A DNA stretch of 63,865 nucleotides, filler included, from Limisphaerales bacterium (GCA_044225505.1; 3 parts of 3 records of this genome joined end to end with filler, not necessarily neighbours in it), one strand, 5' to 3'; shown: positions 26,582-41,091, counted from the whole stretch's first letter. Numbers and translations are program-made. The notes: generated by a model from the letters alone, not told the origin.

Positions 26582-26681
26582 NNNNNNNNNNNNNNNNNNN
26601 NNNNNNNNNNNNNNNNNNNNNNNNNTTAATTAATTAANNNNNNNNNNNNNNNNNNNNNNNNNNNNNNNNNNNNNNNNNNNN
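26582..26681. other. Artificial contig linker
   Basis: N-run, TTAATTAATTAA (26626-26637; stops in all six frames), N-run. Confidence 0.97.
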
Positions 26682-26682
26682 T

Positions 26683-28317
26683 GGGACTTTCCAGGTCGCA
26701 GAATTATCTGGCGGCCCTTCAGCCAATAGGCTCGATGCTTCCGCCTTCTCCGGAACTGTGACTTTGTACGGCGCTGAGGGCAACGATACCCTCCTCGGAA
26801 CGAACGGAGATGATGTCCTCGTGGGCGGTTCCGGCGACGATACGATGCAAGGTGGACTAGGGAGCGATCGCTACGAGTTTGACACAGACACTCTGATTTA
26901 TGACTCGAGCTTACCCGTCAGCGTGGGAGATATCGTCGATGATTCGGGTGGAATCGACACTCTCGATTTTTCCACGACTACCAATTTGGGAATCACCATC
27001 AACCTGGCCTTGATCGGAAAGCAGACGGTGAATTCGAACTTGCTCGTGACGCTCCGAGACAACAATGGGAATGGCCGGGCGGACGAAGTCGAGAACATCA
27101 GCGGATCGCAACAAGATGACAGTTTGATCGGAAATGCGGTAAGCAACGTCATTGACGGCCAAGAGGGCAATGACAATGTCACCGGCGGCGCAGGTTCCGA
27201 TGTCCTGTCGGGTGGGTCTGGTGCCGATGGTCGAGGTGTCGCGTATTCCGATCGACTGACCGAACTTCTGGACGCGGCTAGCATTACGCTCTCCGATTTG
27301 GCGCTGGCTCCGGAGGGTGATGTTCTGAGCGGATTCGAGACGGCGACCTTGACTGGAGGTGCTGGAGCCAATCGCATTGATGCATCGGCGTTCTCGGGAA
27401 CGGTAACCCTCCGCGGCGGCGGCGGTGGCGACACCCTGATTGGTAGCGCTGGGAACGACACGCTCGTTGGCGACGCTGGCAACGACCTCCTCCAAGGTCG
27501 AGGGGGGGATGACACCTACGCTTTCGACACCGACTCGGCTCTCGGCGCAGACCGCATTGAAGAAGAGACCGGTGGGGGCACCGACACTCTCGATTTTTCC
27601 GAGACTACGGCTTTCGCGGTGGTCGTGAATCTTGAAACAGCCTTGGGAACGGCCCAAACCGTTAACGGTAATCTGACGTTGACCTTTGTAGATTTAGATG
27701 GCGATGGCGAAGGAAGTGCCTTGGAACGGGCTGTCGGCGGTGCACTGAACGATCAATTAACGGGGAACGCATTGGCGAACACGTTAGACGGCGGAACGGG
27801 AAATGACACTCTCACCGGTGGAGAAGGCAACGATCTCCTCGTTGGAGGCCGTGGCGACGATACCTACGTGTTCGTGGTGACTGCGCTCGCCAACCTGGGA
27901 ACCGACACGCTTCTGGAAGATGTTGGGACTGGCGGCGTCGATACGCTCGACTTCGCAGGTTCGGTTTTAGGTATCGACATCGATCTCGGAGAAGGAGCTT
28001 CTCAGTCGATCGTGACTGGAAAGCTCAGCCTGGAATTGCTGCGGTGTGCCGCGTTCGAAACGCTCCTGGGCACGAGCCAAGCCGACTCCATCACGGCCAA
28101 TAGCGTTAGCACTCGGCTAGACGGACGCGGCGGAGATGACACGTTCAATATAAAGCTCCCGTTGCTCCAAACCGCCACAGCCCTCGGCGGCGGCGGGAGT
28201 GACCTTTTGAATTTCCTATCGAATGGAGCACTGGCCACGGACCTCAGCGGCACGATCCGTGCCCTTGGATATCCACCTTTAAGTTACAGCGGCTTTGAAA
28301 CCGTGAAGATCACATGA
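26683..28317 (+). CDS. Haemolysin-type Ca2+-binding (RTX nonapeptide) repeat protein, C-terminal part
   Basis: Frame open from the contig edge; many GGxGxDxLx repeats (GGSGDDTMQ, GGAGSDVLS, GGTGNDTLT, GGRGDDTYV) and repeated GGxDTLDFS blocks. Confidence 0.9.
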   Translation, partial: GTFQVAELSGGPSANRLDASAFSGTVTLYGAEGNDTLLGTNGDDVLVGGSGDDTMQGGLGSDRYEFDTDTLIYDSSLPVSVGDIVDDSGGIDTLDFSTTTNLGITINLALIGKQTVNSNLLVTLRDNNGNGRADEVENISGSQQDDSLIGNAVSNVIDGQEGNDNVTGGAGSDVLSGGSGADGRGVAYSDRLTELLDAASITLSDLALAPEGDVLSGFETATLTGGAGANRIDASAFSGTVTLRGGGGGDTLIGSAGNDTLVGDAGNDLLQGRGGDDTYAFDTDSALGADRIEEETGGGTDTLDFSETTAFAVVVNLETALGTAQTVNGNLTLTFVDLDGDGEGSALERAVGGALNDQLTGNALANTLDGGTGNDTLTGGEGNDLLVGGRGDDTYVFVVTALANLGTDTLLEDVGTGGVDTLDFAGSVLGIDIDLGEGASQSIVTGKLSLELLRCAAFETLLGTSQADSITANSVSTRLDGRGGDDTFNIKLPLLQTATALGGGGSDLLNFLSNGALATDLSGTIRALGYPPLSYSGFETVKIT

Positions 28318-31300
28318 ACCCGCGATCTATGGCACAAAGACGGCCGAATTCGGGAATCGGATTGACGCGGAATCCAGAGTGGAAGCGCGGCGCTTTCGAA
28401 TTGGTAGGAACCACTCCGAAACGCCCTCACAGACGCCAACCCATCGGAGATTACCGTTACTTTTTTCTTCTCCTGCTTTTCCTATGCACGGAGAGTGTTG
28501 GTTGGGCACAAAGAGCGCCTGTTCTCTCGGATATTCCCGACCAAGTCATTGACGAGGATGCCAGTGTTGGACCCATTCCGATCCGCATCGCCGATCCGGA
28601 TACCCCATTGACCTCTTTGACCTTCCGACGAGAATCGAGCGATCCCAATCTAGTTCCAGTCGCCAACATCGTGGTCTCTGGCAGCGGGACCAATCGCGCT
28701 ATCCGTGTGACGCCGCGCCCGAACGCATTCGGTCAAACGACGATCACACTGAGCGTGAGCGACGGGCAATTGTCCGCAACCGATACATTCAAAGTTCTCG
28801 TCCGCCCCGTGAACGATCTTCCGTTGATCTCGCGGGTGAGAGACCAAACGGTGGCCCGAAACGCAACCACAGGTCCTTTAAACTTCGGGGTGTTTGACCT
28901 GGAGACGGAGCCCACTCAGTTAAAAGTCACCGCGGTCGCTGACAACGTGACTTTGGTTCCAGCGTCGGCTATCACACTGGGCGGTGCCGGAACAAATCGT
29001 ACCGTGAACATCTCGCCTGCGTCAAATCAGGCAGGCTCTACTACGGTGACATTGGCAGTGACGGACGCCGACGGCGGCAAGTCGACTTCCAGTTTCCTCC
29101 TGACGGTGTCCAGTAATGGCGTCGCTCCGCAAATCACGCGGCAACCTGCCGGCGTCGTCCTAGCGGAAGGCGAGGCGTTGAGTCTTAGCGTTGTTGCTAC
29201 TGGCGACGCGCCTCTCCGCTACCAGTGGCGATTCAATGGCCAACCGATTTCAGGAGCCACTTCCGCGGAGTTCATTGTAGCGAAAGTCGTCCGCACGGGC
29301 GCTGGATCTTTCGATGTTGTGGTCAGCAATGAGTTCGGATCCACGACCAGCAGCGCTGCCAGTGTAGAAGTGAACACCTACGATTTTGGCGACGCACCAT
29401 CTCCGTACCCCACGTTGAAGCCCGACGGAGCGGCCCATCGTGTCCAGGCGGGCTTTGGGCTCGGGACGCCGCCGGACGGTGAGGGCGATGGTCTTCCAGA
29501 GGCCGCGGCCAAGGGCGACGACAATAGTGGAACGTCGGATGAGAACGGAGTGGTGCTCCCGCTCGAACTAACGATAGGAAGGGCGAATCAGGTCCAAGTG
29601 CGCTTTACGGACACCTTTCATGCAACCCCGTCGGGCATTTTGGTCGTCTGGCTCGACCTGAATGCCAACGGATCGTGGGACGATGCCGGAGAGCGATTTG
29701 GCCCGTTCCAGCTGCAGAACGCGGGCACAAATACCATCAGCCTGGCGATACCAGCGGGACTCGTTCCGGGATCAAGTTTCGCCAGATTCCGCCTGACTTC
29801 CGATGGTGCAGCGCAAAGCCCACGCGGCCGCCGTGAGGATCCCGGAGAAGTTGAAGACCATTCCATGACGCTCAAGAATTCCGGCACTGGCCCGGGCGAG
29901 GGCGGCGCGACCCTGGATTTCGGAGACGCCCCGGACAGTTATCAGACCACCTTAGCGTCTGATGGCGCCCGCCACACGCGGGTCGCGGGATTTAACTTAG
30001 GCCGTCTCATTGACGTCGAAACGAACGCGGTGCCCCCGCTGAATGGGTTTGGTGACAATTCGTCACCTGCGGCCGCCAATGATGAGGATGGTATCACGTT
30101 CTTAAGCGCCGTTAACCCCGGGTTTTCCCTGCAACTTCGTGCCGTCACGACTATTACGAACGGAACCGGCAAGCTTGACGCGTGGGTAGATTGGAACCAA
30201 AACGGCTCGTTTGCCGATGTTGGCGACCGGATTTACACCGGCGTTACGGTGACAAATGGCACCAACACCCTTCCGGCAGTCGCGGTGCCTGCCAATGCGT
30301 CGGTCGGTTCGACATTCGCGCGCTTCCGATTGAGCCGGGGCGGGCTCAATACCTGGTTCGGCTTGGCGCAGGATGGTGAAGTCGAAGATTATACGCTGCA
30401 AGTGCGTCGCAATACGGAGGTTCAGCTGGACTTCGGGGATGCCCCTCAAGGCCCGAACGGTGGTTACCCTACAACCCTCGCACGCAACGGAGCTCGGCAC
30501 CAGTTAAACCAATCGATTCATCTGGGACAATTGATCGATCTCGAACCGGATGGGCAGCCTAACGTGACTGCTAGCGGCGACGATACAAGCGGGGCCGCAG
30601 ATGAGGATGGCGTGTTTTTCCCATCGCCACTCGTCCCGGGGGCGACGAATGTTGTCCAAGTCGAGGTGGTCTCACCCCCAGGGATGATCGTTCACCTTGA
30701 CGCCTTCATTGACTTCAATCGCGACGGGGATTGGGCCGACGCTGGCGAAAAAGTGTTTAATGCGTTGCCGTTAGCCAATGGAAGTCACACGTTGGCGTTT
30801 GCGGTGCCAGCGACGGCGAGCGCGGGGCTAACCTTTGCCCGCTTTCGCTTGAGCCAACAAGGCGGCCTCAGCTTTGACGGCGACGGTGGGGTCGGTGAGG
30901 TGGAGGATCTAAGGCTTACCATCGAGAAAGCTCAAGAGACAGGCACCTGCGACCTCAGCTGCCAGGGAACTGACTTTTGGGTGGCATTTCCAGGGAACTA
31001 TGCCCCGGACCCGGCCAACCCGGTGACCCCTGTGCTCGCCGTGGTTGGCCCAATCAACAGCGTGATTACCGTAGAAAATCTGGCTGTTGCGACGACCACT
31101 CGATTTACGAACGTGACGGGAACCCTCCGCATCTCGCTCAACAAAGCGACCGATCTGGGAGATTTGAATGACGCTGTCGCGCGCAAAGGTGTGCACGTCA
31201 CCGTTACACAACCGAGCACGCTCTATGGTTTGAGCAAGGTCACTTACACCAGCGATGGGTATCTGGCGCTTCCCAGTGAGACCCTTGGGACCGAGCATGT

Positions 31301-32948
31301 CATGGCCGCATTTGGCAATGTGCACGCCGGTATTCCGGAACTCAACGGGACTCAGTTTGCGATGGTAGCGACGGAGACCAACACGACGGTCACCGTCATC
31401 CCATCGATAACAACCGGTGCCAGGACCGCCCGGATGCCTTACTCCATTGTCTTGACCAACCGGGGGGATTGTTACCAATTGCGCAACACAGGAGATGCTC
31501 CGAGTGATCTTACTGGGACAGTGCTACTCTCAGACAAGCCGATCGCCGCCTACGCCGGACATCACATTGCGAACGTTGCTTCCGCTGATCCGTTCTTCGC
31601 TGATTATCTCGTCGAGTCCATGCCACCCGTAAACCGGTGGGGGTCCGAATTCTATACAACACCCCTGACTACTCGTTCAGGCGGCGACACCTATCGTATC
31701 GTCGCGGCGCGCGACAATACCGCCGTGACCCTCAATAGTGCCGCGCCTATTCTCCTCAACCGCGGAGATTACCATCAGACCTTGCTGACGGGCGCCTCCC
31801 GCATCGTTGCCGATAAGCCAGTCTTTGTTGCCCAGTTCGCCCATAGCTCCGACGTCGACGGCGTCACAAATTCTGATCCCTTTATGGTGACAGTCCCCGC
31901 GCGACCGCACTGGAGTGCTGTGCAGTCATTCACCACGCCTGGGGTTGGATTTGCGAGTCACTATGTGAATGTGGTCGTTTCCAAATCGGCTTCGGCCTCC
32001 TTGCGAATGGATGGCGCGCCGTTCGCCAGTTTCAGTTCGGCGATTCAAGGGGGCGACTACGTGTTTGCCACCAGCTCTGTAACGACGGGAACCCACGCCA
32101 TCACGTGCAACGAGCCTGTCGGTGTGATTGTCTATGGCTGGAATGAATATGAAAGCTACGGCTGGCCAGGATGCTTGTTTTTTGGCGACACCACACCGCC
32201 TATTCTGCATTGCCGAACGAACGAAGTCGTGGTGACAGCGGGTCGAGACAGTGATAAGGAGCCTTGCCGCGCGCGGGTAGGGGACTACCGGCAATTAGTG
32301 CAGGCGACGGACAACTGTGAGCTGCCCGATCAGGTGGTAGTCGAACAAGTTCCCGCTCCCGGCACGTTTTTGCCAGTGGGTCAGCATCAAATCAAGCTGA
32401 GCGTGACCGACAAAGCGGGTAACGTGGGGACTTGCTACCTGGGTTTCACCGTCGACGATCCAAATCCTGACGGCCCACTTAGTTTAGATTGCCCAGCGGA
32501 CATGTTAGTGCGGTGTACTGACGCTGAAGGAGCTATCGTCAAGTATGCCGTCACCGCGTTGCGTGGATGTACGCCTCTAACCGAAGGACTCGTTTGCGAA
32601 CCGCCTCCCGGAACTCATTTCCCGCGCGGAACCAACCTTGTCACTTGCACTCTCACAGCTCCAGGACAGCAACCGCTCCGTTGCTCGTTTCGCGTTATTG
32701 TCTCATGTCGCCCAGCCGTTAACCGCACGGTAAAGATTAATCCGCCCACAGCGGATCCCTCGGTGCCGAACGGTGGTAAACAAGTAGTCATCGAATTCGA
32801 GCCAGACTCCAATATCGTGTTGGAGGTCGCGGATTCCGTCATTGGGCCCTGGACGGAGTTACCAAACATTCCCTCGCGATACCAAATCAAGATCGCGCAG
32901 GAACGTGGCAAATTCTTCCGACTGAAAGAGAAGACGTCGGTGCCGTGA
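28314..32948 (+). CDS. Large secreted multidomain adhesin-like protein (2 cadherin-like, Ig, 3 GEVED, IgGFc-binding N-terminal-like, 2 HYR-like, C-terminal FFR domain)
   Basis: ATGA overlap with the RTX gene; signal peptide ending VGWA; APQITRQP...YQW Ig; three DFGDAP...ARFRL...GEVED repeats; GTDFWVAFPGN...YESYGWPG domain; DTTPPILHC/HYR-like domains; ends VLEVADSVIGPW...KFFRLK. Confidence 0.88.
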   Translation: MNPRSMAQRRPNSGIGLTRNPEWKRGAFELVGTTPKRPHRRQPIGDYRYFFLLLLFLCTESVGWAQRAPVLSDIPDQVIDEDASVGPIPIRIADPDTPLTSLTFRRESSDPNLVPVANIVVSGSGTNRAIRVTPRPNAFGQTTITLSVSDGQLSATDTFKVLVRPVNDLPLISRVRDQTVARNATTGPLNFGVFDLETEPTQLKVTAVADNVTLVPASAITLGGAGTNRTVNISPASNQAGSTTVTLAVTDADGGKSTSSFLLTVSSNGVAPQITRQPAGVVLAEGEALSLSVVATGDAPLRYQWRFNGQPISGATSAEFIVAKVVRTGAGSFDVVVSNEFGSTTSSAASVEVNTYDFGDAPSPYPTLKPDGAAHRVQAGFGLGTPPDGEGDGLPEAAAKGDDNSGTSDENGVVLPLELTIGRANQVQVRFTDTFHATPSGILVVWLDLNANGSWDDAGERFGPFQLQNAGTNTISLAIPAGLVPGSSFARFRLTSDGAAQSPRGRREDPGEVEDHSMTLKNSGTGPGEGGATLDFGDAPDSYQTTLASDGARHTRVAGFNLGRLIDVETNAVPPLNGFGDNSSPAAANDEDGITFLSAVNPGFSLQLRAVTTITNGTGKLDAWVDWNQNGSFADVGDRIYTGVTVTNGTNTLPAVAVPANASVGSTFARFRLSRGGLNTWFGLAQDGEVEDYTLQVRRNTEVQLDFGDAPQGPNGGYPTTLARNGARHQLNQSIHLGQLIDLEPDGQPNVTASGDDTSGAADEDGVFFPSPLVPGATNVVQVEVVSPPGMIVHLDAFIDFNRDGDWADAGEKVFNALPLANGSHTLAFAVPATASAGLTFARFRLSQQGGLSFDGDGGVGEVEDLRLTIEKAQETGTCDLSCQGTDFWVAFPGNYAPDPANPVTPVLAVVGPINSVITVENLAVATTTRFTNVTGTLRISLNKATDLGDLNDAVARKGVHVTVTQPSTLYGLSKVTYTSDGYLALPSETLGTEHVMAAFGNVHAGIPELNGTQFAMVATETNTTVTVIPSITTGARTARMPYSIVLTNRGDCYQLRNTGDAPSDLTGTVLLSDKPIAAYAGHHIANVASADPFFADYLVESMPPVNRWGSEFYTTPLTTRSGGDTYRIVAARDNTAVTLNSAAPILLNRGDYHQTLLTGASRIVADKPVFVAQFAHSSDVDGVTNSDPFMVTVPARPHWSAVQSFTTPGVGFASHYVNVVVSKSASASLRMDGAPFASFSSAIQGGDYVFATSSVTTGTHAITCNEPVGVIVYGWNEYESYGWPGCLFFGDTTPPILHCRTNEVVVTAGRDSDKEPCRARVGDYRQLVQATDNCELPDQVVVEQVPAPGTFLPVGQHQIKLSVTDKAGNVGTCYLGFTVDDPNPDGPLSLDCPADMLVRCTDAEGAIVKYAVTALRGCTPLTEGLVCEPPPGTHFPRGTNLVTCTLTAPGQQPLRCSFRVIVSCRPAVNRTVKINPPTADPSVPNGGKQVVIEFEPDSNIVLEVADSVIGPWTELPNIPSRYQIKIAQERGKFFRLKEKTSVP

Positions 32949-34334: not shown

Positions 34335-35939
34335 TTATTGGTCCAGGATTCGGAATTGCAGATAAAGATCCGTCTCGGCGAAGCTTTTCCGGAATGATCC
34401 CCACGCCGCATCACTCATCGCGTCCGGTTTGGGTTTCGGATGCGGATCATCGACGCGCATCAACCGGTGACCAGTCTTTTCCTCCAAGCGCCGCAGCAGG
34501 GGTTCAAAGGGCATTTTGTCCCACCCCTTGACGACGGCCATCGCGTGGTCGACCGGGATCATCGCCACGAGTTCGGGATGATTCATGAGCTCCAACCCCT
34601 TTAATTCGGTGCCCAGCCCACGAACCGTGGCGTTGTGGCTGCCGTGATGCCCAACCTTGTAAAGCACCGTGCGATTTAGCAAATCGCCGATGCGAATCTC
34701 TTGCTTGTGACCGTTCGAATCGGTCGTTTGCCAACGGTATTGATCCCAGGAAAGCCAATTGCCGACCTGCGCGTCGGCTGCAAAAAGGAGGACCTTGCCC
34801 GTCGAGACGAGCTCGATCGCCAGGACCAGGCTGGTGTTGTTCGTGTAGCTATCCAACTTCAAGGCCAGGTCGCCCGCAAGGCCGAGCCAGTCATCGTCAA
34901 TGCGCCGCCAAGCGGAGCGGTGTCCGGGGGGTTGCCCCTGCGCGGTTTGCTTCTTCACCAACGGCTTGGCGCGATGCTCGAAGCCGTAATTGTCTCGGAA
35001 AAAGGGAATCGTTTTCGCTTCGGACGTCGGAACCTGCAGCATGGAATCAAACGGAAAACTAAGCCTTTGCACGTCCTGCTCCGCTTCTGATGATTGGGCC
35101 GGATCCTGCAAGGCACTGAGAAACGCCGTCCGTTGCGTGAGTGCTGAACGTTCCGTGTAAACTTCCTTGCCCGATTTGGTCGGGTTAATGCGCCGCAATT
35201 CCTTCTCATCGTGCGGCGGTCCCAGGATATAGATCCGCACGGCGTTGGCCAATGACTCCCCCTGGCTCCCAGGCAAGGGCAGGGGACCGGTCCCAGGGAG
35301 ATGGTATTGGGGAGTTGTTTGGCCGAGCTTGGCGGCCGCTTGCATCGCTGCCCGAGTGTCACTGGCGCTCGCGGCATGCGCAAAGTTGGGAGACAGACCA
35401 AAGAAGCCGAGCAGATTCGCAATGTGTTCCACCGAACGGCTGTCGACGGCCCGCGCCACCGCGTTTCTTAATAACCCAAGTTCCTTATCAAAGTTCTGGC
35501 GAAGCTTCTGGGCTAAGGCGTCCTTCGGATCTTCGGTCCAGGCAAACCAGACTTGTTCGATCTGCAGGGATTTAAAAGCCGCGCTGGCTTGCAGAAACCC
35601 AGACACGTGGTCCCAGTGTTCGTGGGTGACGACGAGCAAATGGAGTGTCCCACCGGTGGCATCATGGACATCTCGGACCACGCGATCCATCGTTGTGCTG
35701 GCGTCTTGTGTGCCGAGAATCACGCCACAATCAATCAACAGGTAGTACGGAGCGTTGGGGTCCTGCGTGGCGAAGGCCACGAGGAAGCAGTCGCCCAGAC
35801 CCTGACGGTACATGCGCACCTCCGTCGATTTCGGCGGCGGTACGAGCCGCCTTGACGGCGAATCAGCGCGATCCTTTGCCATCTCCGGACGATTCGTGGT
35901 CGTCTCTGACTTGCGGATGTTCGAATCAGATCTGGCCAT
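34335..35939 (-). CDS. ComEC/Rec2-like MBL-fold metallo-hydrolase with large insertions
   Basis: RMYRQGLGDCFL, LIDCG, THEHWDH (HxHxDH), NNTSLVL, LLFAADAQ, YKVGHHGSHNAT; SD GAGGA 8 nt before ATG 35939, which lies 4 nt after the upstream stop; no signal peptide. Confidence 0.9.
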   Translation of the reverse strand: MARSDSNIRKSETTTNRPEMAKDRADSPSRRLVPPPKSTEVRMYRQGLGDCFLVAFATQDPNAPYYLLIDCGVILGTQDASTTMDRVVRDVHDATGGTLHLLVVTHEHWDHVSGFLQASAAFKSLQIEQVWFAWTEDPKDALAQKLRQNFDKELGLLRNAVARAVDSRSVEHIANLLGFFGLSPNFAHAASASDTRAAMQAAAKLGQTTPQYHLPGTGPLPLPGSQGESLANAVRIYILGPPHDEKELRRINPTKSGKEVYTERSALTQRTAFLSALQDPAQSSEAEQDVQRLSFPFDSMLQVPTSEAKTIPFFRDNYGFEHRAKPLVKKQTAQGQPPGHRSAWRRIDDDWLGLAGDLALKLDSYTNNTSLVLAIELVSTGKVLLFAADAQVGNWLSWDQYRWQTTDSNGHKQEIRIGDLLNRTVLYKVGHHGSHNATVRGLGTELKGLELMNHPELVAMIPVDHAMAVVKGWDKMPFEPLLRRLEEKTGHRLMRVDDPHPKPKPDAMSDAAWGSFRKSFAETDLYLQFRILDQ

Positions 35940-35943
35940 GAGT

Positions 35944-37911
35944 TTAGTCCTCGGAATGCTCGCCACGGTGCAGCATGGCAAACGGTTCGCCGCCATCGGC
36001 CTTCGCCATGCGTCCGAAGTAGAGGGCTCGCAGCGAGGTATCCGTGTCGCCTTTCAGGAATCGCCGTTGACGGTCTAGGCGCTGATCATTCGTGACCCGC
36101 TTCGAGATACAGTAGCGGACGCGCGATGTCTCGAGATCAATGATCATCGTAAATCCTCCCCGGAAGGCAAAGTCGCGTTTTGGCGGGTTCTTGATTTTGC
36201 CGCTGTCGACCGCAGCTTGCACTGCCGGATCGAAGTATCCGTTCCGGTGTTGGGTAACTTCCAGGATGAGATCCGCAAGGGATTCGCCGTCTGGACTGAC
36301 GCGTCGTGCGGGTCGCAACGAATGCACCTCGAACTTAGCGCCAGGCCGGCTCAAGTCGAGCCCCATGAGCGCTTGCGACCCATGCCCAGTGTTTTCCACA
36401 AGCCAGTCGTGCAGTCGAGCCCGCTTCGCTTTCAAACCCTCGAAAATCTCCTCGGAGCGAGTGGAGAGGTCCCACCCTTGAACCATTTTGCCAGCCTCTT
36501 CGACCATTGGCCGAAAGTGGTTCTCGAATTCGTCGTCGTTCGGAGGCGACCAGCGCAGGCTTTCCACGGAGATCGTGCGCACATCGGGCGGGTGAATCCC
36601 GCGGCGCCGAAACGCTTCTACAAAGGCGATGCGATAGCCTTTGTCGTCGTCGGGAACGAGATCATAATCGGCCGTGATTAACGCCCTTAAATACTCACCA
36701 AACGTCAGATCGACAGGTGGGCAATAGTCCAGCGCGCGAATGCACATGTGCAACACGTGCCTGGCAGATTTGGCTGCCTCCAGCGCGAGGCGTTTCACAA
36801 GGTCGGGATGCAATTGCCCTTCGGGCAGCAAGCCAGTGCCGTTGGTCGCAATCCGCAGCAAATCCGCCGACCGCGTGCGGTAGATCGTGGTAAACGCGTC
36901 AAAAACCGCTCCCACGAGAATGGCTCCGCGATCGTGCGGTTCGAATATTCGTTCAAGACTGGTTGGATCCGGTTTGGCCGGTTCCCAAGTTCCTTTCGCA
37001 TTTGGGCTTCCCAAGGCGTCTCGCAACGCGCGGTGCATCCCCGACGCTTTGCCGAACTGCTGCGCCAACTGCGCCAGAAGGTTTTCCGTGGCGAGATTGC
37101 CTCGGGTCCGAGCGACCTGGTGACGCAGGACTTCCGGAAATGAAAAGTGCTGGAACAGCGCAATGATATCCGCAAACGCCTCATGGAACGCCAACACGTC
37201 GGGATTTGTCGGCTCGTTATAGCGCGGATGCAACCCGTCCAAGAGCGCGTGTGTCGTCTCGTGAGCAATAATATCGTGCGAAAGGCAGGTAAACACGATC
37301 CCGCCTGACGGCTGAGACTCTGGGTCCGCCGCACTGGCCGGGAAATAGCCGAACAACAGCGCTTTCTTTTCCGGACTGTAATAGGCATTAGCTTCGCGGA
37401 GGGCATGAGGATAGATCCGCAATCGCTTGACGAACCGCTCGCCCGCTTTTCCGTCCTGACGTTCCCAGCGCGATGCCCAGAATGCGGTCCGGCCCAACGC
37501 GAGTTCGAAATTGCGGATGGTCGTCATGGCCACGGCGTAGACCATCTGCTGGTGAAACTGCGGGTTCCCTTCGGATGGGGCCAAGCCGTCCTGGGCCAAG
37601 AGGTAGGGCTGGTTCAGATCCACCGGCAGATAAAAGCAATCGCTCGCCGGATCGAAATCGATCACTTCGACATACTCTCCAATCGGTCCAGGCTGAAGCG
37701 TGTCCTCGCCCGTCGCCGGATCGTACTCCCACGGAACCTGCAATGTGACCAAGTTTACCAGCGAGGTCTCAAGCTGAACCGAGAGGCTTGGGTCGAACGC
37801 ATAGGAACGCAAGCGCCGAAACTTGGGCCTGGGAACGGGCACGGCCTTGGGCTTGGGCTTGGCTGCAGGTTGGCCGGCCGAGGGGCGGCGAGATGAGACC
37901 GTGCGCTTCAT
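35944..37911 (-). CDS. Cytoplasmic thermolysin-like (M4/gluzincin) metalloprotease
   Basis: NAYY, DIIAHETTH (HExxH), third ligand HEAFAD (cf. thermolysin NEAISD), EPH..G (cf. VH..SG); no signal peptide; start at MKRTVSS. Confidence 0.85.
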   Translation of the reverse strand: MKRTVSSRRPSAGQPAAKPKPKAVPVPRPKFRRLRSYAFDPSLSVQLETSLVNLVTLQVPWEYDPATGEDTLQPGPIGEYVEVIDFDPASDCFYLPVDLNQPYLLAQDGLAPSEGNPQFHQQMVYAVAMTTIRNFELALGRTAFWASRWERQDGKAGERFVKRLRIYPHALREANAYYSPEKKALLFGYFPASAADPESQPSGGIVFTCLSHDIIAHETTHALLDGLHPRYNEPTNPDVLAFHEAFADIIALFQHFSFPEVLRHQVARTRGNLATENLLAQLAQQFGKASGMHRALRDALGSPNAKGTWEPAKPDPTSLERIFEPHDRGAILVGAVFDAFTTIYRTRSADLLRIATNGTGLLPEGQLHPDLVKRLALEAAKSARHVLHMCIRALDYCPPVDLTFGEYLRALITADYDLVPDDDKGYRIAFVEAFRRRGIHPPDVRTISVESLRWSPPNDDEFENHFRPMVEEAGKMVQGWDLSTRSEEIFEGLKAKRARLHDWLVENTGHGSQALMGLDLSRPGAKFEVHSLRPARRVSPDGESLADLILEVTQHRNGYFDPAVQAAVDSGKIKNPPKRDFAFRGGFTMIIDLETSRVRYCISKRVTNDQRLDRQRRFLKGDTDTSLRALYFGRMAKADGGEPFAMLHRGEHSED

Positions 37912-37934
37912 GGAACGTATCCGGTTTGAAAGAG

Positions 37935-39113
37935 CTAAATGCCTCCGGGACAAGGGAATACCGGCTGTTGATCGACCTTGATGCCGTAAGCGTTCAAGGC
38001 TGCCACACAATGTTTGCGCAACGCCGCGTCACAAATCGCGTATCCCCAGTTCATCAACCGATCCTGCCGCTCGGCATCCAGGCGCTTGAGGCGGGTTGGA
38101 GTCTCTGCGAGATCCAGGGTTCGCTCAAGCGGGCAAGGCAATGCCGTCGGCAGGTCGTAATCGTCAATCTGCGAACGAATTCCCCAATATGCCCCGTCAT
38201 GTTCGGTCGGAGCGTTCTTAAAGCCATCGATTAGTTGCCGCTTGCGCAAGCTTCGCACCTGATTATCGATCAGATTTAGCACCCGATACGAATGACGCCC
38301 CCAATCGTGCTTAGGCTCTTCCTCCGCCGAAAGCTTTCCGCCGCCATCACTGACCAACACCGTGCGATACCGTTTCCAAGCGGTTTCCAGCCCCAGGTTA
38401 TCGTAGACCCCACCGTCACTCAGAACGATGTTCGTGGTGAACGGCTCCTTTTGCAGCGGACAATCTCGGTCAGGCAGAAAGTCGGCGTGTTGCAATTTGA
38501 GCCGCGCGGGCGATAGGACCGGTGGGAAGGCGGATGAAGCGGTCACGGCCAGCGATAACCGAATCGTCGGGTTCGGAACTCTGCCTACCAGGTAATCGGC
38601 CATGAATGGTTTGGAAAACCGCCACAGCGCTCCGGATTGCACATTCGTAGCGTTGATCACAAACCTCGGACCTTCGCTGTCGCTGGGAAGATCCTGCAAT
38701 GTGGCCTCTCCAAACAACGTTTCTTCGTAGGCGCGCTGGACTTTCTCGCTGATTGTTCCTGGGGTAAAAATCCCCGTGATAATCGCTTCGGCATCAATTG
38801 TCGTTCCCGCCATCGCTCGCACCGGCGTTATCACCCTTTCCGTGAGATTCGTAGCCCTTCCAGCGGCATCCCAAACCAGTTCCTTCCAATGCAAACCGAG
38901 AACGCCAGCAGTGATCGACCCCCCGGAAACACTCGAGACCCGGGCGAGCTTGGACAATGCCCCCGCTTCGTTGAGTCGAAGCAATGTCCCTAGATGAAAG
39001 ACCATTGCGCGATAGCCGCCGCCCGAGAGACAGAGTGCGACCCCCGCTTCGGGATCTCGAGGAGCTTCTAGATCAGGCGGGATCAGGGTGACTGGAGAAG
39101 CGGCCGTGTTCAT
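37935..39113 (-). CDS. Patatin-like phospholipase
   Basis: LCLSGGGYRA (oxyanion loop), SVSGG nucleophile elbow, ASSAFP, SDGGVYDNLG; start at MNTAASP. Confidence 0.92.
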   Translation of the reverse strand: MNTAASPVTLIPPDLEAPRDPEAGVALCLSGGGYRAMVFHLGTLLRLNEAGALSKLARVSSVSGGSITAGVLGLHWKELVWDAAGRATNLTERVITPVRAMAGTTIDAEAIITGIFTPGTISEKVQRAYEETLFGEATLQDLPSDSEGPRFVINATNVQSGALWRFSKPFMADYLVGRVPNPTIRLSLAVTASSAFPPVLSPARLKLQHADFLPDRDCPLQKEPFTTNIVLSDGGVYDNLGLETAWKRYRTVLVSDGGGKLSAEEEPKHDWGRHSYRVLNLIDNQVRSLRKRQLIDGFKNAPTEHDGAYWGIRSQIDDYDLPTALPCPLERTLDLAETPTRLKRLDAERQDRLMNWGYAICDAALRKHCVAALNAYGIKVDQQPVFPCPGGI

Positions 39114-39254
39114 AAATCGATGCGTTAATAGGTTATTTATCCTACGTTCCATCAAGGCATACGGGTTGCCAATGCCTGATCTTTCAGACAATTGCAGAAA
39201 AGAGCGAGCGCTAAGAATTTCGAGGCCGATCCGCTCCAAATCCGTCCTGCCGCC

Positions 39255-39370
39255 GATCAGCGTTCGATCAGCGTTCGATCAGGTCTCGATCAGCGTTCGA
39301 TGAAGTTTTGATCAGGTATGGCCAGATCTTGTTCTGGCTTTGATCCGCTCAAGGTGAGGCCTCGGTGACA
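39255..39370. repeat. Helically phased 11-bp direct repeat array (consensus GATCAGCGTTC)
   Basis: Units at 39255, 39266, 39277, 39288, 39299, 39310 (GATCAGCGTTC x2, GATCAGGTCTC, GATCAGCGTTC, GATGAAGTTTT, GATCAGGTATG), with degenerate continuation at 39342 (GATCC), 39353 and 39364 (GGTGA). Confidence 0.9.
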
Positions 39371-39520
39371 CCTTCACCGACCTTTAATCGGCAGCCACTC
39401 ATTAACGTCACTTCATTGTAACCACACCGATTTCCACACGTCTAATGATCGCACGCACAGCGGCAATGATGCTGCCCGCGCGTGAAAAGAAGGTTAACCC
39501 GCAGTAAAAAGCGAATCCAT

Positions 39521-40114
39521 ATGGCATTCATCAAGCCAAATCCACTCCTCAAAGAGATTCACGGCAAAATCGGCAACCTCTACATCTCCCGCGCGGGGGA
39601 TGAACTGGTTCTCAAAAAGGTCCCGGAACGACACCCGCCCAAACCACCTAGCCCAGCTCAGGAAGTCGTGCGTAAAAGGCTCATGCTAGCCTCAGAATAC
39701 TGGCGGATGGTTCAAACCCAGCCGGAAGAAAAAGCAGTTTACGTAACAGCAGCAAAACTGGCGCGCCGCCGGGCCATTGATTTAGCCAAAGCGGACTATT
39801 TACACGCACCGGCCATCACCGACATCGATTGCGCGGCTTATAGCGGCAAGGTCGGAGATATCCTCTGGATACGGGCCGAGGACGATTTTGAAGTGAAGAG
39901 AGTGCAGGTGCGCGTGTTGAGATTAGATGGTAGCTCGATCGAGTCTGGAGACGCGATTCTGGACGTAGATCGGCAAGCCTGGCGGTATATGGGCACGGTT
40001 CTGGTAGACGCTGGGGTAACGGTCACGATTGAAGCGGCGGCATTCGATCGACCCGGGAATCGAGGGACAAAGCGAGTTGATCATGCCTGCGGAGAGCGGA
40101 ACATGGCTCCGTGA
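39521..40114 (+). CDS. Hypothetical protein: basic N-terminal GKIG/helical region plus C-terminal Ig-like domain
   Basis: MAFIKPNPLLKEIHGKIGNLY...P...PSPAQ..VRKRL..A N-terminus (reminiscent of Bacteroidota DUF6266-type proteins); C-terminal AEDDFEVKRVQV...IE.G.A...W.Y...AFDRPGN beta-sandwich. Confidence 0.8.
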   Translation: MAFIKPNPLLKEIHGKIGNLYISRAGDELVLKKVPERHPPKPPSPAQEVVRKRLMLASEYWRMVQTQPEEKAVYVTAAKLARRRAIDLAKADYLHAPAITDIDCAAYSGKVGDILWIRAEDDFEVKRVQVRVLRLDGSSIESGDAILDVDRQAWRYMGTVLVDAGVTVTIEAAAFDRPGNRGTKRVDHACGERNMAP

Positions 40115-40149
40115 TCGGTCACATCCTTCCGTTCGATCGCAGTCCCGTC

Positions 40150-41091
40150 TCAAGCGAGCGGCGATGGAGCCCCGGCGCTCGCCGCTCTCGTTGCTACGGA
40201 TCCGCGAAGCCGATCGTCCACCGACTCGTCGTTGGACCTCGGGGAGCGCAGGCGTTCGTCGAGGAACGCCCGAATCTCCGGGGCAAGCTCCCGGTGGAAC
40301 TGGATTCGGTCGAAACCCGCTGGATCCGTGGCGGGACGGAAGTTGGGTTGCCGCATCGACTCCGGAAACGGGCTCAGAAAAGAGAAGTGTCCAGCGTTGG
40401 GGATGATCCGGCAGGTGACTTGAGATGGGTCAGCAACACCACGGATCACCAGATCCGCATGCCAACGGGGCGTGATCCCATCCTTCTCCCCAATCAACAT
40501 CAGAATTGGGATCGTAACGGAGCGCAGAGAATCCGCGGCCGAAAACCACGGAGTTGCCGGAGCGAGGAGGACGAGCGCGCGGAGGCGTGGCTCGCACACG
40601 GTTGGGGCAGGGTGTCCGTCGAGAGTGGGCACGCCCCCCGCCGCCGCAAGGGCGGTATAACCGCCTAACGAATGACCGATCGCCGTGACGACATCTCGCT
40701 GAATGTGCGGCCCTAGCTCCGGGTGAGCGTAGAGGGCATCGACCGCTGCACGCAGGTGCTTCGGTCGATTGACGAGATTAACAACCGTGTTTTCCAAGCG
40801 ATTGTCGTCTCGATTGTTCCCGGGGTGTTGCACCGCGGCGACGATGTAGCCGTGCTGGGCCAAGTGACAGCCCAACTCACGAAACAGCAGATGAGAACTC
40901 CCCGAACCGTGCGAAATGATCGCCAGTGGAAATCGTCCGTCGGCGACGGCGGCCTCTGGGCTGACTTCCATCCGGTAGGGACCGAACGAGGTAAGTACCG
41001 CCGGGGTTTCCGTGGGATAGAGAACGATCGCCGGGAACGGCACCTCCGCCGCCGCGTCGTAAATATTCAATAATCGGCTGCCCGCGAACAC
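40150..41091 (-). CDS. Alpha/beta hydrolase (predicted dienelactone hydrolase / PAF-AH-like)
   Basis: FPLAIISHGSG, GYIVAAVQHPG, GHSLGG nucleophile, GEKD, NAGHFSF. GTG 41091 preferred because ATG 41166 leaves only 29 bp to the divergent gene. Confidence 0.88.
   Translation of the reverse strand: MFAGSRLLNIYDAAAEVPFPAIVLYPTETPAVLTSFGPYRMEVSPEAAVADGRFPLAIISHGSGSSHLLFRELGCHLAQHGYIVAAVQHPGNNRDDNRLENTVVNLVNRPKHLRAAVDALYAHPELGPHIQRDVVTAIGHSLGGYTALAAAGGVPTLDGHPAPTVCEPRLRALVLLAPATPWFSAADSLRSVTIPILMLIGEKDGITPRWHADLVIRGVADPSQVTCRIIPNAGHFSFLSPFPESMRQPNFRPATDPAGFDRIQFHRELAPEIRAFLDERLRSPRSNDESVDDRLRGSVATRAASAGAPSPLA

Follow-up and report, generated by a model that had tools for sequence, protein, structure and literature searches.

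We wondered what a patatin-like phospholipase, a thermolysin-like (M4/M36-fold) zinc metalloprotease and a ComEC-type metallo-β-lactamase (MBL)-fold hydrolase might do together, since their genes follow one another in a 63,865-nucleotide stretch of DNA from a Limisphaerales bacterium (GCA_044225505.1). This stretch, referred to here as the window, consists of joined contigs of a draft genome (at least three contigs and 176 N, with the runs of N between 26582 and 52533). The original prediction took the three genes for an operon and for a metalloprotease version of a protease-nuclease pair that acts in defence or cell death. Comparison with relatives showed a smaller conserved unit, a cassette of protease and MBL. 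It is probably a metalloprotease variant of the protease-activated pro-nuclease modules and would act in conflict, most likely against phages by abortive infection.

A two-gene protease-MBL cassette with an accessory patatin

All three genes lie on the minus strand, wholly within one contig, and their coordinates use the most plausible starts. The patatin-like gene (39113..37935; 392 amino acids; product P0001), identified by Pfam Patatin, is the accessory third gene. It is followed by the two core genes, both identified by fold match and motifs: the protease gene (37911..35944; 655 amino acids; P0002) and the gene for the MBL-fold hydrolase, a putative gated nuclease (35939..34335; 534 amino acids; P0003). 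A gap of 23 bp separates the patatin TAG (37937-37935) from the protease ATG (37911). At the protease-MBL junction (35952-35940, minus strand), GAGGA (35952-35948) sits in the last protease codons and is followed by TAA (35946-35944), a 4-bp spacer and the MBL ATG at 35939. The co-orientation, the two short gaps and the Shine-Dalgarno sequence in the final codons of the protease, all predicted originally, could be read from the sequence.

Locus counts refer to the best 80 loci, each from a different species. An MBL gene lay directly downstream of the protease gene on the same strand at 76 of these, and at the other four (L002, L044, L045 and L065) the contig ended in or just after the protease. 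The reverse search gave the same pairing: all 25 plasmid records with a P0003-like MBL had the protease upstream on the same strand, 22 of them within 200 bp and three at ~1.56 kb. The MBL was likewise retained by a protease subfamily of 41% identity, and no other neighbour family recurred at the 80 loci. Co-occurrence of the protease with the MBL, suggested as a check when the locus was first described, is thus far beyond chance. Protease and MBL distances at 74 loci were also correlated (Mantel r = 0.76; 0 of 999 permutations as high), a correlation to which shared species history may contribute. Because the pairing holds both ways and the two genes are co-inherited, we take the unit to be the two-gene protease-MBL cassette.

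The patatin had a different distribution. A P0001-like patatin was found at 18 of the 80 loci, 13 having too little upstream DNA to score, and it lay mostly upstream of the pair, twice downstream and once on the opposite strand. Its presence on the protease tree required 15 gains or losses, at least 13 of them forced by supported branches, and it clustered no more strongly than shuffled labels did (15 changes versus a mean of 16.2). As judged from this distribution, the patatin is a labile accessory that was gained or lost many times. The three-gene operon of the original prediction therefore survives as the conserved pair (76 of 80 loci) but not with the patatin as a fixed member (18 of 80, scattered on the tree).

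The same patatin family joins both this pair and other protease-MBL loci repeatedly and independently. On the Sinorhizobium meliloti M270 plasmid accessoryB (L089, 6055-10322), a 61%-identical patatin is followed by an S8 peptidase and then by a ComEC-like MBL distant from P0003 (E = 4e-4), the segment being flanked by IS5, IS30 and ISNCY transposases. A member of the family also lies beside a caspase gene on an S. americanum plasmid.

Lipases of other kinds adjoin the pair as well. These were a different patatin type of ~680 amino acids, in divergent orientation (L066, 5838-7871; L067, 1276-3345) and Tle1/DUF2235-type phospholipases (L073, 4969-5475; L086, 4600-5817), the latter including one in Methylorubrum extorquens. 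From their sequences, several kinds of lipase effector seem to have been recruited beside the pair.

Folds and active sites of the three proteins

P0002 had no match in Pfam (E ≤ 0.1), PADLOC, NCBIfam or the PDB sequences. Its model (pLDDT 78.5, pTM 0.84) matched an M36 protease (7qp3, Z = 13.7), LasB (1ezm, Z = 12.9) and thermolysin (Z = 12.4) over residues 28-450, and Foldseek assigned it a probability of 1.0 to M36/M4. This thermolysin-like catalytic domain (37830..36562, minus strand), in which structural alignments start at residues 28-32 and end at 440-450, contains HETTH at residues 217-221 (37249-37263, minus strand) and HEAFAD at residues 243-248 (Glu244 codon at 37180-37182, minus strand). 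H217, E218, H221, E244 and D248 were invariant in 30 aligned protease sequences, and by analogy E244 is presumably the third zinc-ligand Glu.

The description of the enzyme as thermolysin-like agreed with its fold, its HExxH motif and the downstream Glu, but not with the Pfam M4 profile. None of the 30 aligned members matched Peptidase_M4 at E ≤ 1, and among 14 long relatives four matched at E ≤ 0.01, three of these at or above the 22.4-bit cut-off. No FTP or PepSY propeptide was matched by Pfam in P0002 or in the 30 members (E ≤ 1), and the fold begins at residue 28. A crude hydropathy scan, run without a dedicated signal-peptide predictor, found no signal-like or membrane-like stretch, in keeping with the predicted absence of signal peptides from all three proteins; the sole 19-residue window above 1.6 was a core β-strand of the MBL. 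The protease thus has the HExxH motif, third Glu and fold of the thermolysin family and lacks its profile match, secretion signal and propeptide.

Beyond the thermolysin-like fold, we measured ~205 extra residues (451-655) rather than the ~280 first estimated. Residues 451-623 (36561..36043, minus strand) form a confidently modelled extra domain, made up of a helical linker and a four-stranded β/α unit. A wide fold search gave it weak matches only (Z ~5; IraD, PI3K and IMPase-like), and the ESM Atlas gave unnamed clusters only (scores 0.78-0.83). It is a candidate regulatory or sensor domain. The C-terminal tail (residues 624-655; 36042..35947, minus strand) is conserved and was left unmodelled (pLDDT 29-44). 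It has EPFAxLH near its end, with H648 invariant and E642, P643, F644, A645 and L647 at least 90% conserved in the 30 sequences. In distant protease subfamilies the catalytic domain and the MBL partner are retained, but the C-terminal part is missing or replaced, and matches end near residues 440-460.

The fold closest to that of the MBL model (pLDDT 81.8) was the ComEC MBL domain (9ic4; Z = 22.7, 23% identity, 257 of 266 residues, spread over model residues 36-534), which Foldseek matched with an E value of 9.6e-9. Lactamase_B matches in Pfam were all sub-threshold. The motifs THEHWDH (residues 105-111; HxHxDH at 35607-35624), NNTS (residues 367-370; 34830-34841) and HHGS (residues 431-434; 34638-34649) all lie on the minus strand, and H106, H108, D110, H111, N367, N368, D389, H431 and H432 were invariant in 39 MBL sequences. 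PADLOC matches were confined to residues 38-149 (LmuA-MBL, 1.1e-13; RTasMBL, 1.8e-7; Avs1a, 7.1e-5).

Relative to the ComEC domain, ~240 residues, partly of low confidence and variable in length, are inserted in the MBL between HxHxDH and NNTS. Insertion I (residues 141-203; 35519..35331, minus strand), between motif II and NNTS, consists of helices and a variable loop (181-193), with a pLDDT of 62 at 181-190 and columns that vary in the 39 sequences. Insertion II (residues 245-345; 35207..34905, minus strand) is of low confidence and variable length (pLDDT 49-75 over 251-350), with P296, F297 and Y318 invariant. By comparison with known gated MBLs, it is a candidate gating or cleavage segment.

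Pfam Patatin (PF01734) matched P0001 at E = 5.5e-17 (63 bits against a cut-off of 27.7). The patatin has GGGYR at residues 31-35 (39009-39023), the SVSGG nucleophile elbow at residues 61-65 (38919-38933) and DGG at residues 233-235 (38409-38417), all on the minus strand. Its catalytic motifs were kept in 19 of 19 aligned cassette-linked patatins, the elbow reading S/T-x-S-G-G. Every catalytic motif named originally in the three proteins could be located, and each was invariant or nearly so in relatives.

Fused relatives, plasmids and genomic surroundings

Among 38 hand-picked, N-terminally extended protease homologues, the extension was an S8 domain in 25, nSTAND1, TPR-S and Amidase_2 in one each, and without a family match in 10. 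The extension of P0260 gave a sub-threshold match to DUF7379 only, and P0357 is an S8-M4 fusion with a C-terminal GDPD phosphodiesterase domain. In P0174 an AAA_16 STAND module (AAA_16/NPHP3_N) is joined to two protease copies, and in P0108 the protease is fused to pYEATS. Fusions to STAND occurred in rare relatives only (P0174 and P0271), and further rare fusions (TPR-S, Amidase_2) were found among P0252 and P0254. The S8 domain of the S8-M4 fusion showed no specific link to the S. meliloti S8 peptidase (23% identity, E = 2e-4). Since nSTAND1, TPR-S and pYEATS are linked to immune-type systems, the domain composition of these fused relatives suggests that the protease belongs to conflict systems.

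Tandem duplications of the protease are common, with 2371 longer matches, and make up about a fifth of the family (L029, L035, L036, L038 and L051, for example). Two active-site helices were present in 102 of 120 listed tandem proteins (P0124-P0243), and 71 of these had the catalytic Glu in both copies. The N-terminal copy lacked it in 31 of the 102, with Q in 24, S in four and D, V or N in the rest (mostly HQxxH), whereas the C-terminal copy, which lies beside the MBL gene, always kept it (102 scored). The substitutions make the Glu-less first copy look like a pseudo-enzyme regulator or receptor. Homologues of ~1130 amino acids had been considered as chimeric protease-MBL fusions, but these proved to be tandem protease duplications.

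The protease family is large and unannotated in Pfam, PADLOC and NCBIfam. It comprises at least 8000 clusters at 90% identity; across phyla, identity was 45-67%. Representatives at 50% identity numbered 5430 at E ≤ 0.001, 1741 of them at E ≤ 1e-30, and the carriers include at least 579 species genomes. The protease tree mixes phyla, and only five of 41 related genomes have the protease. There were 72 matching plasmid records, 40 of them conjugative, so the pair is patchy and plasmid-borne.

All three of the plasmid loci that we chose for inspection from among the top matches lay in defence islands. On Agrobacterium pAtH25_79a, patatin, protease and MBL directly precede a complete Hachiman system (HamA, 4e-145; HamB, E = 0; HamC, 4e-105). 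On a Hymenobacter volaticus plasmid (L087, 5583-11330), an LmuB-like SMC ATPase (PADLOC, 3.9e-24) ends 16 bp before the protease of a protease-MBL pair, with E1-E2/JAB, WYL and another MBL nearby. This gene order may reflect recruitment of the protease-MBL module by a Lamassu-like sensor. On pCMU01 of M. extorquens CM4, an S8-M4 fusion and its MBL lie between a DUF2235 lipase, ThsA-like SIR2 genes and an IetA-like ATPase. At chromosomal loci, 13 of 102 immediate neighbours had a PADLOC match at E ≤ 1e-8; we judged ~9 of these credible and four generic (trypsin, methyltransferase, helicase and cyclase).

Other genes of interest were found near the pair. A second short defence-type MBL (PADLOC PDC-M48B/LmuA-MBL) lies a few genes from the cassette at three loci (L037, 11506-12480; L041, 11669-12322; L087, 16401-17558), and related caspase (Peptidase_C14) genes lie beside the pair on the same strand in two unrelated phyla (L019, 5785-7833; L077, 7101-8357).

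In the window, one of the 34 other ORFs matched PADLOC, as a generic methyltransferase, which places the cassette outside any defence island there. The association with defence genes, proposed as a second check, was therefore seen at the chosen plasmid loci (3/3) but is weak in chromosomes and absent from the window. As first described, the block sits among unrelated genes: a ferritin-like gene, a TPMT-type methyltransferase, an α/β hydrolase, two ORFs without a family and large secreted repeat proteins. Genes left of 26682, beyond the N run at 26582-26681, are not necessarily neighbours of the cassette. In relatives, the flanking TPMT protein was 65-68% identical and the α/β hydrolase was not found; the protease copy from the same genus (57% identity) is on a different contig from the TPMT homologue. 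The relatives have diverged too far for the insertion point of the cassette to be placed.

Upstream of the patatin, an 11-bp CGATCAGCGTT-like tandem repeat (39243-39317; ~6 copies with GATC in each) lies 130-200 bp from the start codon, and a promoter-like hexamer pair lies at 39444-39415 on the minus strand. The position of the repeat suggests that it may be an operator or iteron of the cassette. Two overlapping plus-strand ORFs of 210 and 185 amino acids (39482-40668), without a Pfam family, adjoin the cassette. Upstream of the ferritin-like gene, at 26758-32948, are an RTX-repeat protein and then a 1544-amino-acid protein with GEVED, HYR, Ig-like and IgGFc-binding domains.

The protease was not found in IMG/VR viral contigs with two patterns, and 50,697 phage records gave two weak or partial matches only. 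One of these, a 9.5-kb, high-GC metagenomic record (L097; MT836994.1, 'UNVERIFIED Bacteriophage sp.') of doubtful phage origin, has a short protease variant that differs in its C-terminal part and precedes an MBL.

A candidate protease-licensed nuclease and its alternatives

According to recent reports, ComEC-like MBLs beside trypsin-like, caspase and S8 proteases are latent DNases that become active through two site-specific cuts within the loops blocking the active site (PMC12799240; 10.1101/2025.11.14.688446; 10.1101/2025.09.03.673762), and every characterized protease-adjacent ComEC-like MBL described there is a zymogen (PMC12799240; 10.1101/2025.11.14.688446). The trypsin-type modules in those reports are HamMAB, Avs1a/Avs1b, Avs2-MBL and the Lamassu- and DRT-linked modules (Tuck et al., Science 2025, PMC12799240; Evans et al., 10.1101/2025.11.14.688446; 10.1101/2025.09.03.673762). 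Like these modules, the present cassette has a ComEC-like MBL with its metal motifs beside a co-evolving protease and is mobile and linked to defence islands. Its MBL insertions, which follow HxHxDH and precede the Asn/Ser motif, correspond in topological position to the published gating loops. The N terminus of P0003 also matches the LmuA-MBL, RTasMBL and Avs1a models. However, its protease is a thermolysin-fold zinc enzyme where theirs is a serine protease, and the partner of the MBL is thus none of the trypsin, caspase or S8 proteases. The MBL gene lies downstream rather than upstream of the protease, and most loci are without a separate or fused sensor (STAND, HamAB, LmuB or RT). The MBL is also longer (~470-535 versus ~320-390 amino acids) and similar over ~100 residues only. 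The KSS and IS(G)N cleavage motifs are not seen in the present cassette.

Two other published arrangements are closer in gene order. Canu (KaeCanABC; PMC12799240) also has its nuclease gene downstream of a non-trypsin protease without a fused classical sensor, and dual disordered insertions predicted as gates. It differs in having a cysteine instead of a zinc protease and in CanB, which complexes with the protease, whereas there is no conserved third gene here. The S8-associated MBL clade ('Clade 3' in 10.1101/2025.11.14.688446), at the S. meliloti M270 locus, has the patatin-protease-MBL layout with the same patatin family, and many relatives of the present protease carry an N-terminal S8 domain. 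At that locus, however, the protease class is swapped, the MBL is distant and the S8 domain is only generically alike.

Each protein also differs from its better-known relatives. The protease shares its fold, its HExxH motif and a downstream Glu in an ExxxD context with thermolysin (M4) and fungalysin (M36), but unlike those secreted zymogens it has no signal peptide or FTP/PepSY propeptide and does have the extra C-terminal residues, the conserved tail and an MBL partner. The intact motifs of the patatin make a death-effector role plausible, as for CBASS CapV and other patatin effectors; in contrast to CapV, its elbow is S/T-x-S-G-G rather than G-x-S-x-G, and it has no nucleotide-sensing domain. 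Unlike ComEC, P0003 is a soluble stand-alone protein with ~240 inserted residues and is without a competence channel or OB domain. There is no cyclase in the locus, and the PADLOC phospholipase effector matched the patatin at E = 0.0094 (13 bits), so that the locus is not CBASS; nor is it AVAST type 1, since the window has no STAND NTPase and no trypsin-like protease. The locus therefore fits no named system, as had been said of it.

A metalloprotease-MBL pair is not described in the main texts of PMC12799240, 10.1101/2025.11.14.688446 and 10.1101/2025.09.03.673762, nor was one found in the supplementary tables of PMC12799240 or in library searches, although fig. S2 ('other diverse protease families') or the preprint supplements may show it. 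PMC13069673 and 10.1101/2025.09.30.679545 make no mention of a metallopeptidase, and the latter does not mention a metalloprotease either. With the published trypsin, caspase and S8 analogues, the mechanism gains in plausibility and the finding loses some of its categorical novelty. The idea of a metalloprotease version of the protease-nuclease pair is supported by the pairing, the ComEC-like MBL, the mobility and the fusions; what falls away is the three-gene unit.

From these comparisons we infer a mechanism in which latency, cleavage, DNase and lipase activity, a trigger and a phage phenotype would be combined as follows. The protease would be held inactive in the cytoplasm, where its C-terminal domain, its tail or the dead duplicate copy might keep it silent. 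The signal, infection or some related stress, would be sensed via the extra C-terminal domain of the protease or, in relatives, via a fused S8, STAND, TPR-S or pYEATS module or the catalytically dead second protease copy. The active protease would then cut the long MBL insertions between HxHxDH and NNTS, and the cut MBL would be an unmasked, metal-dependent DNase that destroys cellular and viral DNA. Where present, the patatin would be a second, membrane-directed death effector; the protease may license it too, or the two effectors may work in parallel. A more specific version, which we put forward only tentatively, makes the thermolysin-fold protease itself the pathogen sensor. Its C-terminal domain and EPFAxLH tail would keep it latent, the HQxxH copy would be a decoy or receptor, and both the DNase and the phospholipase would be licensed by cleavage.

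Several observations weigh against a protease-activated pro-nuclease. Mean identity across phyla was 56% for the protease versus 38% for the MBL, a degree of conservation in the protease that is unusual among immune proteins. The single-copy form revealed no sensor, and the 39-sequence alignment showed no KSS or IS(G)N-like cleavage motif in the MBL insertions. The likeness of the MBL to defence MBLs is limited to ~85-110 N-terminal residues: the NCBIfam Avs1a equivalog NF041809 reached 32 bits against a cut-off of 420, over residues 43-132 only, and hhalign against the full-length defence-type MBL near the cassette in L037 aligned 83 N-terminal columns only. The second-best fold match of the MBL was the phosphorylcholine esterase Pce (2bib; Z = 20.1), close enough to the 22.7 of ComEC that the MBL may be a non-nuclease phosphodiesterase. 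As to context, the three plasmid loci were not a random choice, chromosomal loci have mostly housekeeping neighbours by Pfam, as in the window, and the baseline of one in 34 window ORFs is too small to give the 13 of 102 neighbours any significance.

Some of these points would suit a conflict cassette without zymogen logic, in which the MBL is no substrate of the protease. The three enzymes would then work as effectors in parallel, or the protease would serve to degrade proteins of the phage or the host. Active sites are intact in all three enzymes, no cleavage motif was found in the MBL insertions, and the patatin is gained and lost as freely as one would expect of an independent effector. 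We nevertheless consider this unlikely, given that the strict gene order, the abutting or overlapping junctions and the correlated divergence argue for a specific protease-MBL partnership, that all the characterized protease-adjacent ComEC-like MBLs described in those reports are zymogens, and that the ~240 inserted MBL residues lie at the same topological place. A mobile module with a selfish or stress function but no role against phages, serving plasmid addiction, programmed death or inter-bacterial competition and riding with defence islands, is quite improbable. The frequency of the pair on large, often conjugative plasmids, the many chromosomal copies among housekeeping genes, the high conservation of the protease and its absence from IMG/VR viral contigs in the two-pattern search would fit such a module; however, neither an antitoxin-like small partner nor a secretion or delivery domain recurs, and the nSTAND1, TPR-S and pYEATS fusions and the Hachiman and LmuB-like neighbours are typical of anti-phage systems.

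The closeness of the MBL to Pce, the GDPD domain at the C terminus of P0357 and the lipases that recur nearby (the patatin, the other type at L066 and L067, and Tle1/DUF2235 at L073 and in M. extorquens) would instead suit a metabolic or envelope-turnover operon. The patatin would free fatty acids, the MBL would be a Pce-like phosphodiesterase with head groups or polymers of the teichoic type as its substrates, and processing inside the cell would fall to the peptidase. This is very improbable: the patatin is absent from 62 of the 80 loci (13 of the 80 lacking enough upstream sequence to score), the pair is missing in most close relatives, lipid and envelope genes are not linked to it, and the three proteins all appear to be cytoplasmic. 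The chance that the three genes are adjacent by accident and have unrelated functions is practically negligible. Nothing favours it for the pair, where the 76 of 80 loci and 25 of 25 plasmid records refute chance adjacency; in its favour for the patatin is its absence from most loci, but the patatin joins such pairs again and again, independently.

Protease-licensed pro-nucleases are a recurrent immune logic, established in 2025 with trypsin-, caspase- and subtilisin-type partners (PMC12799240; 10.1101/2025.11.14.688446). The protease-MBL family would extend this logic to zinc metalloproteases and would be its simplest form yet, because most loci are without a separate sensor. If the protease is itself the sensor, it would be a fourth protease class, and the first metalloprotease, in prokaryotic protease-zymogen immunity, and the S8-M4 fusions would be a true two-step protease cascade. 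How a cytoplasmic thermolysin-like enzyme stays silent, and what it senses, becomes a tractable question, for which the labile patatin, the dead-copy duplications and the S8-M4 fusions are natural experiments on the swapping of effectors and regulators. Confirmation of the system would add a widespread, soil- and plasmid-borne entry to the tools used for defence annotation.

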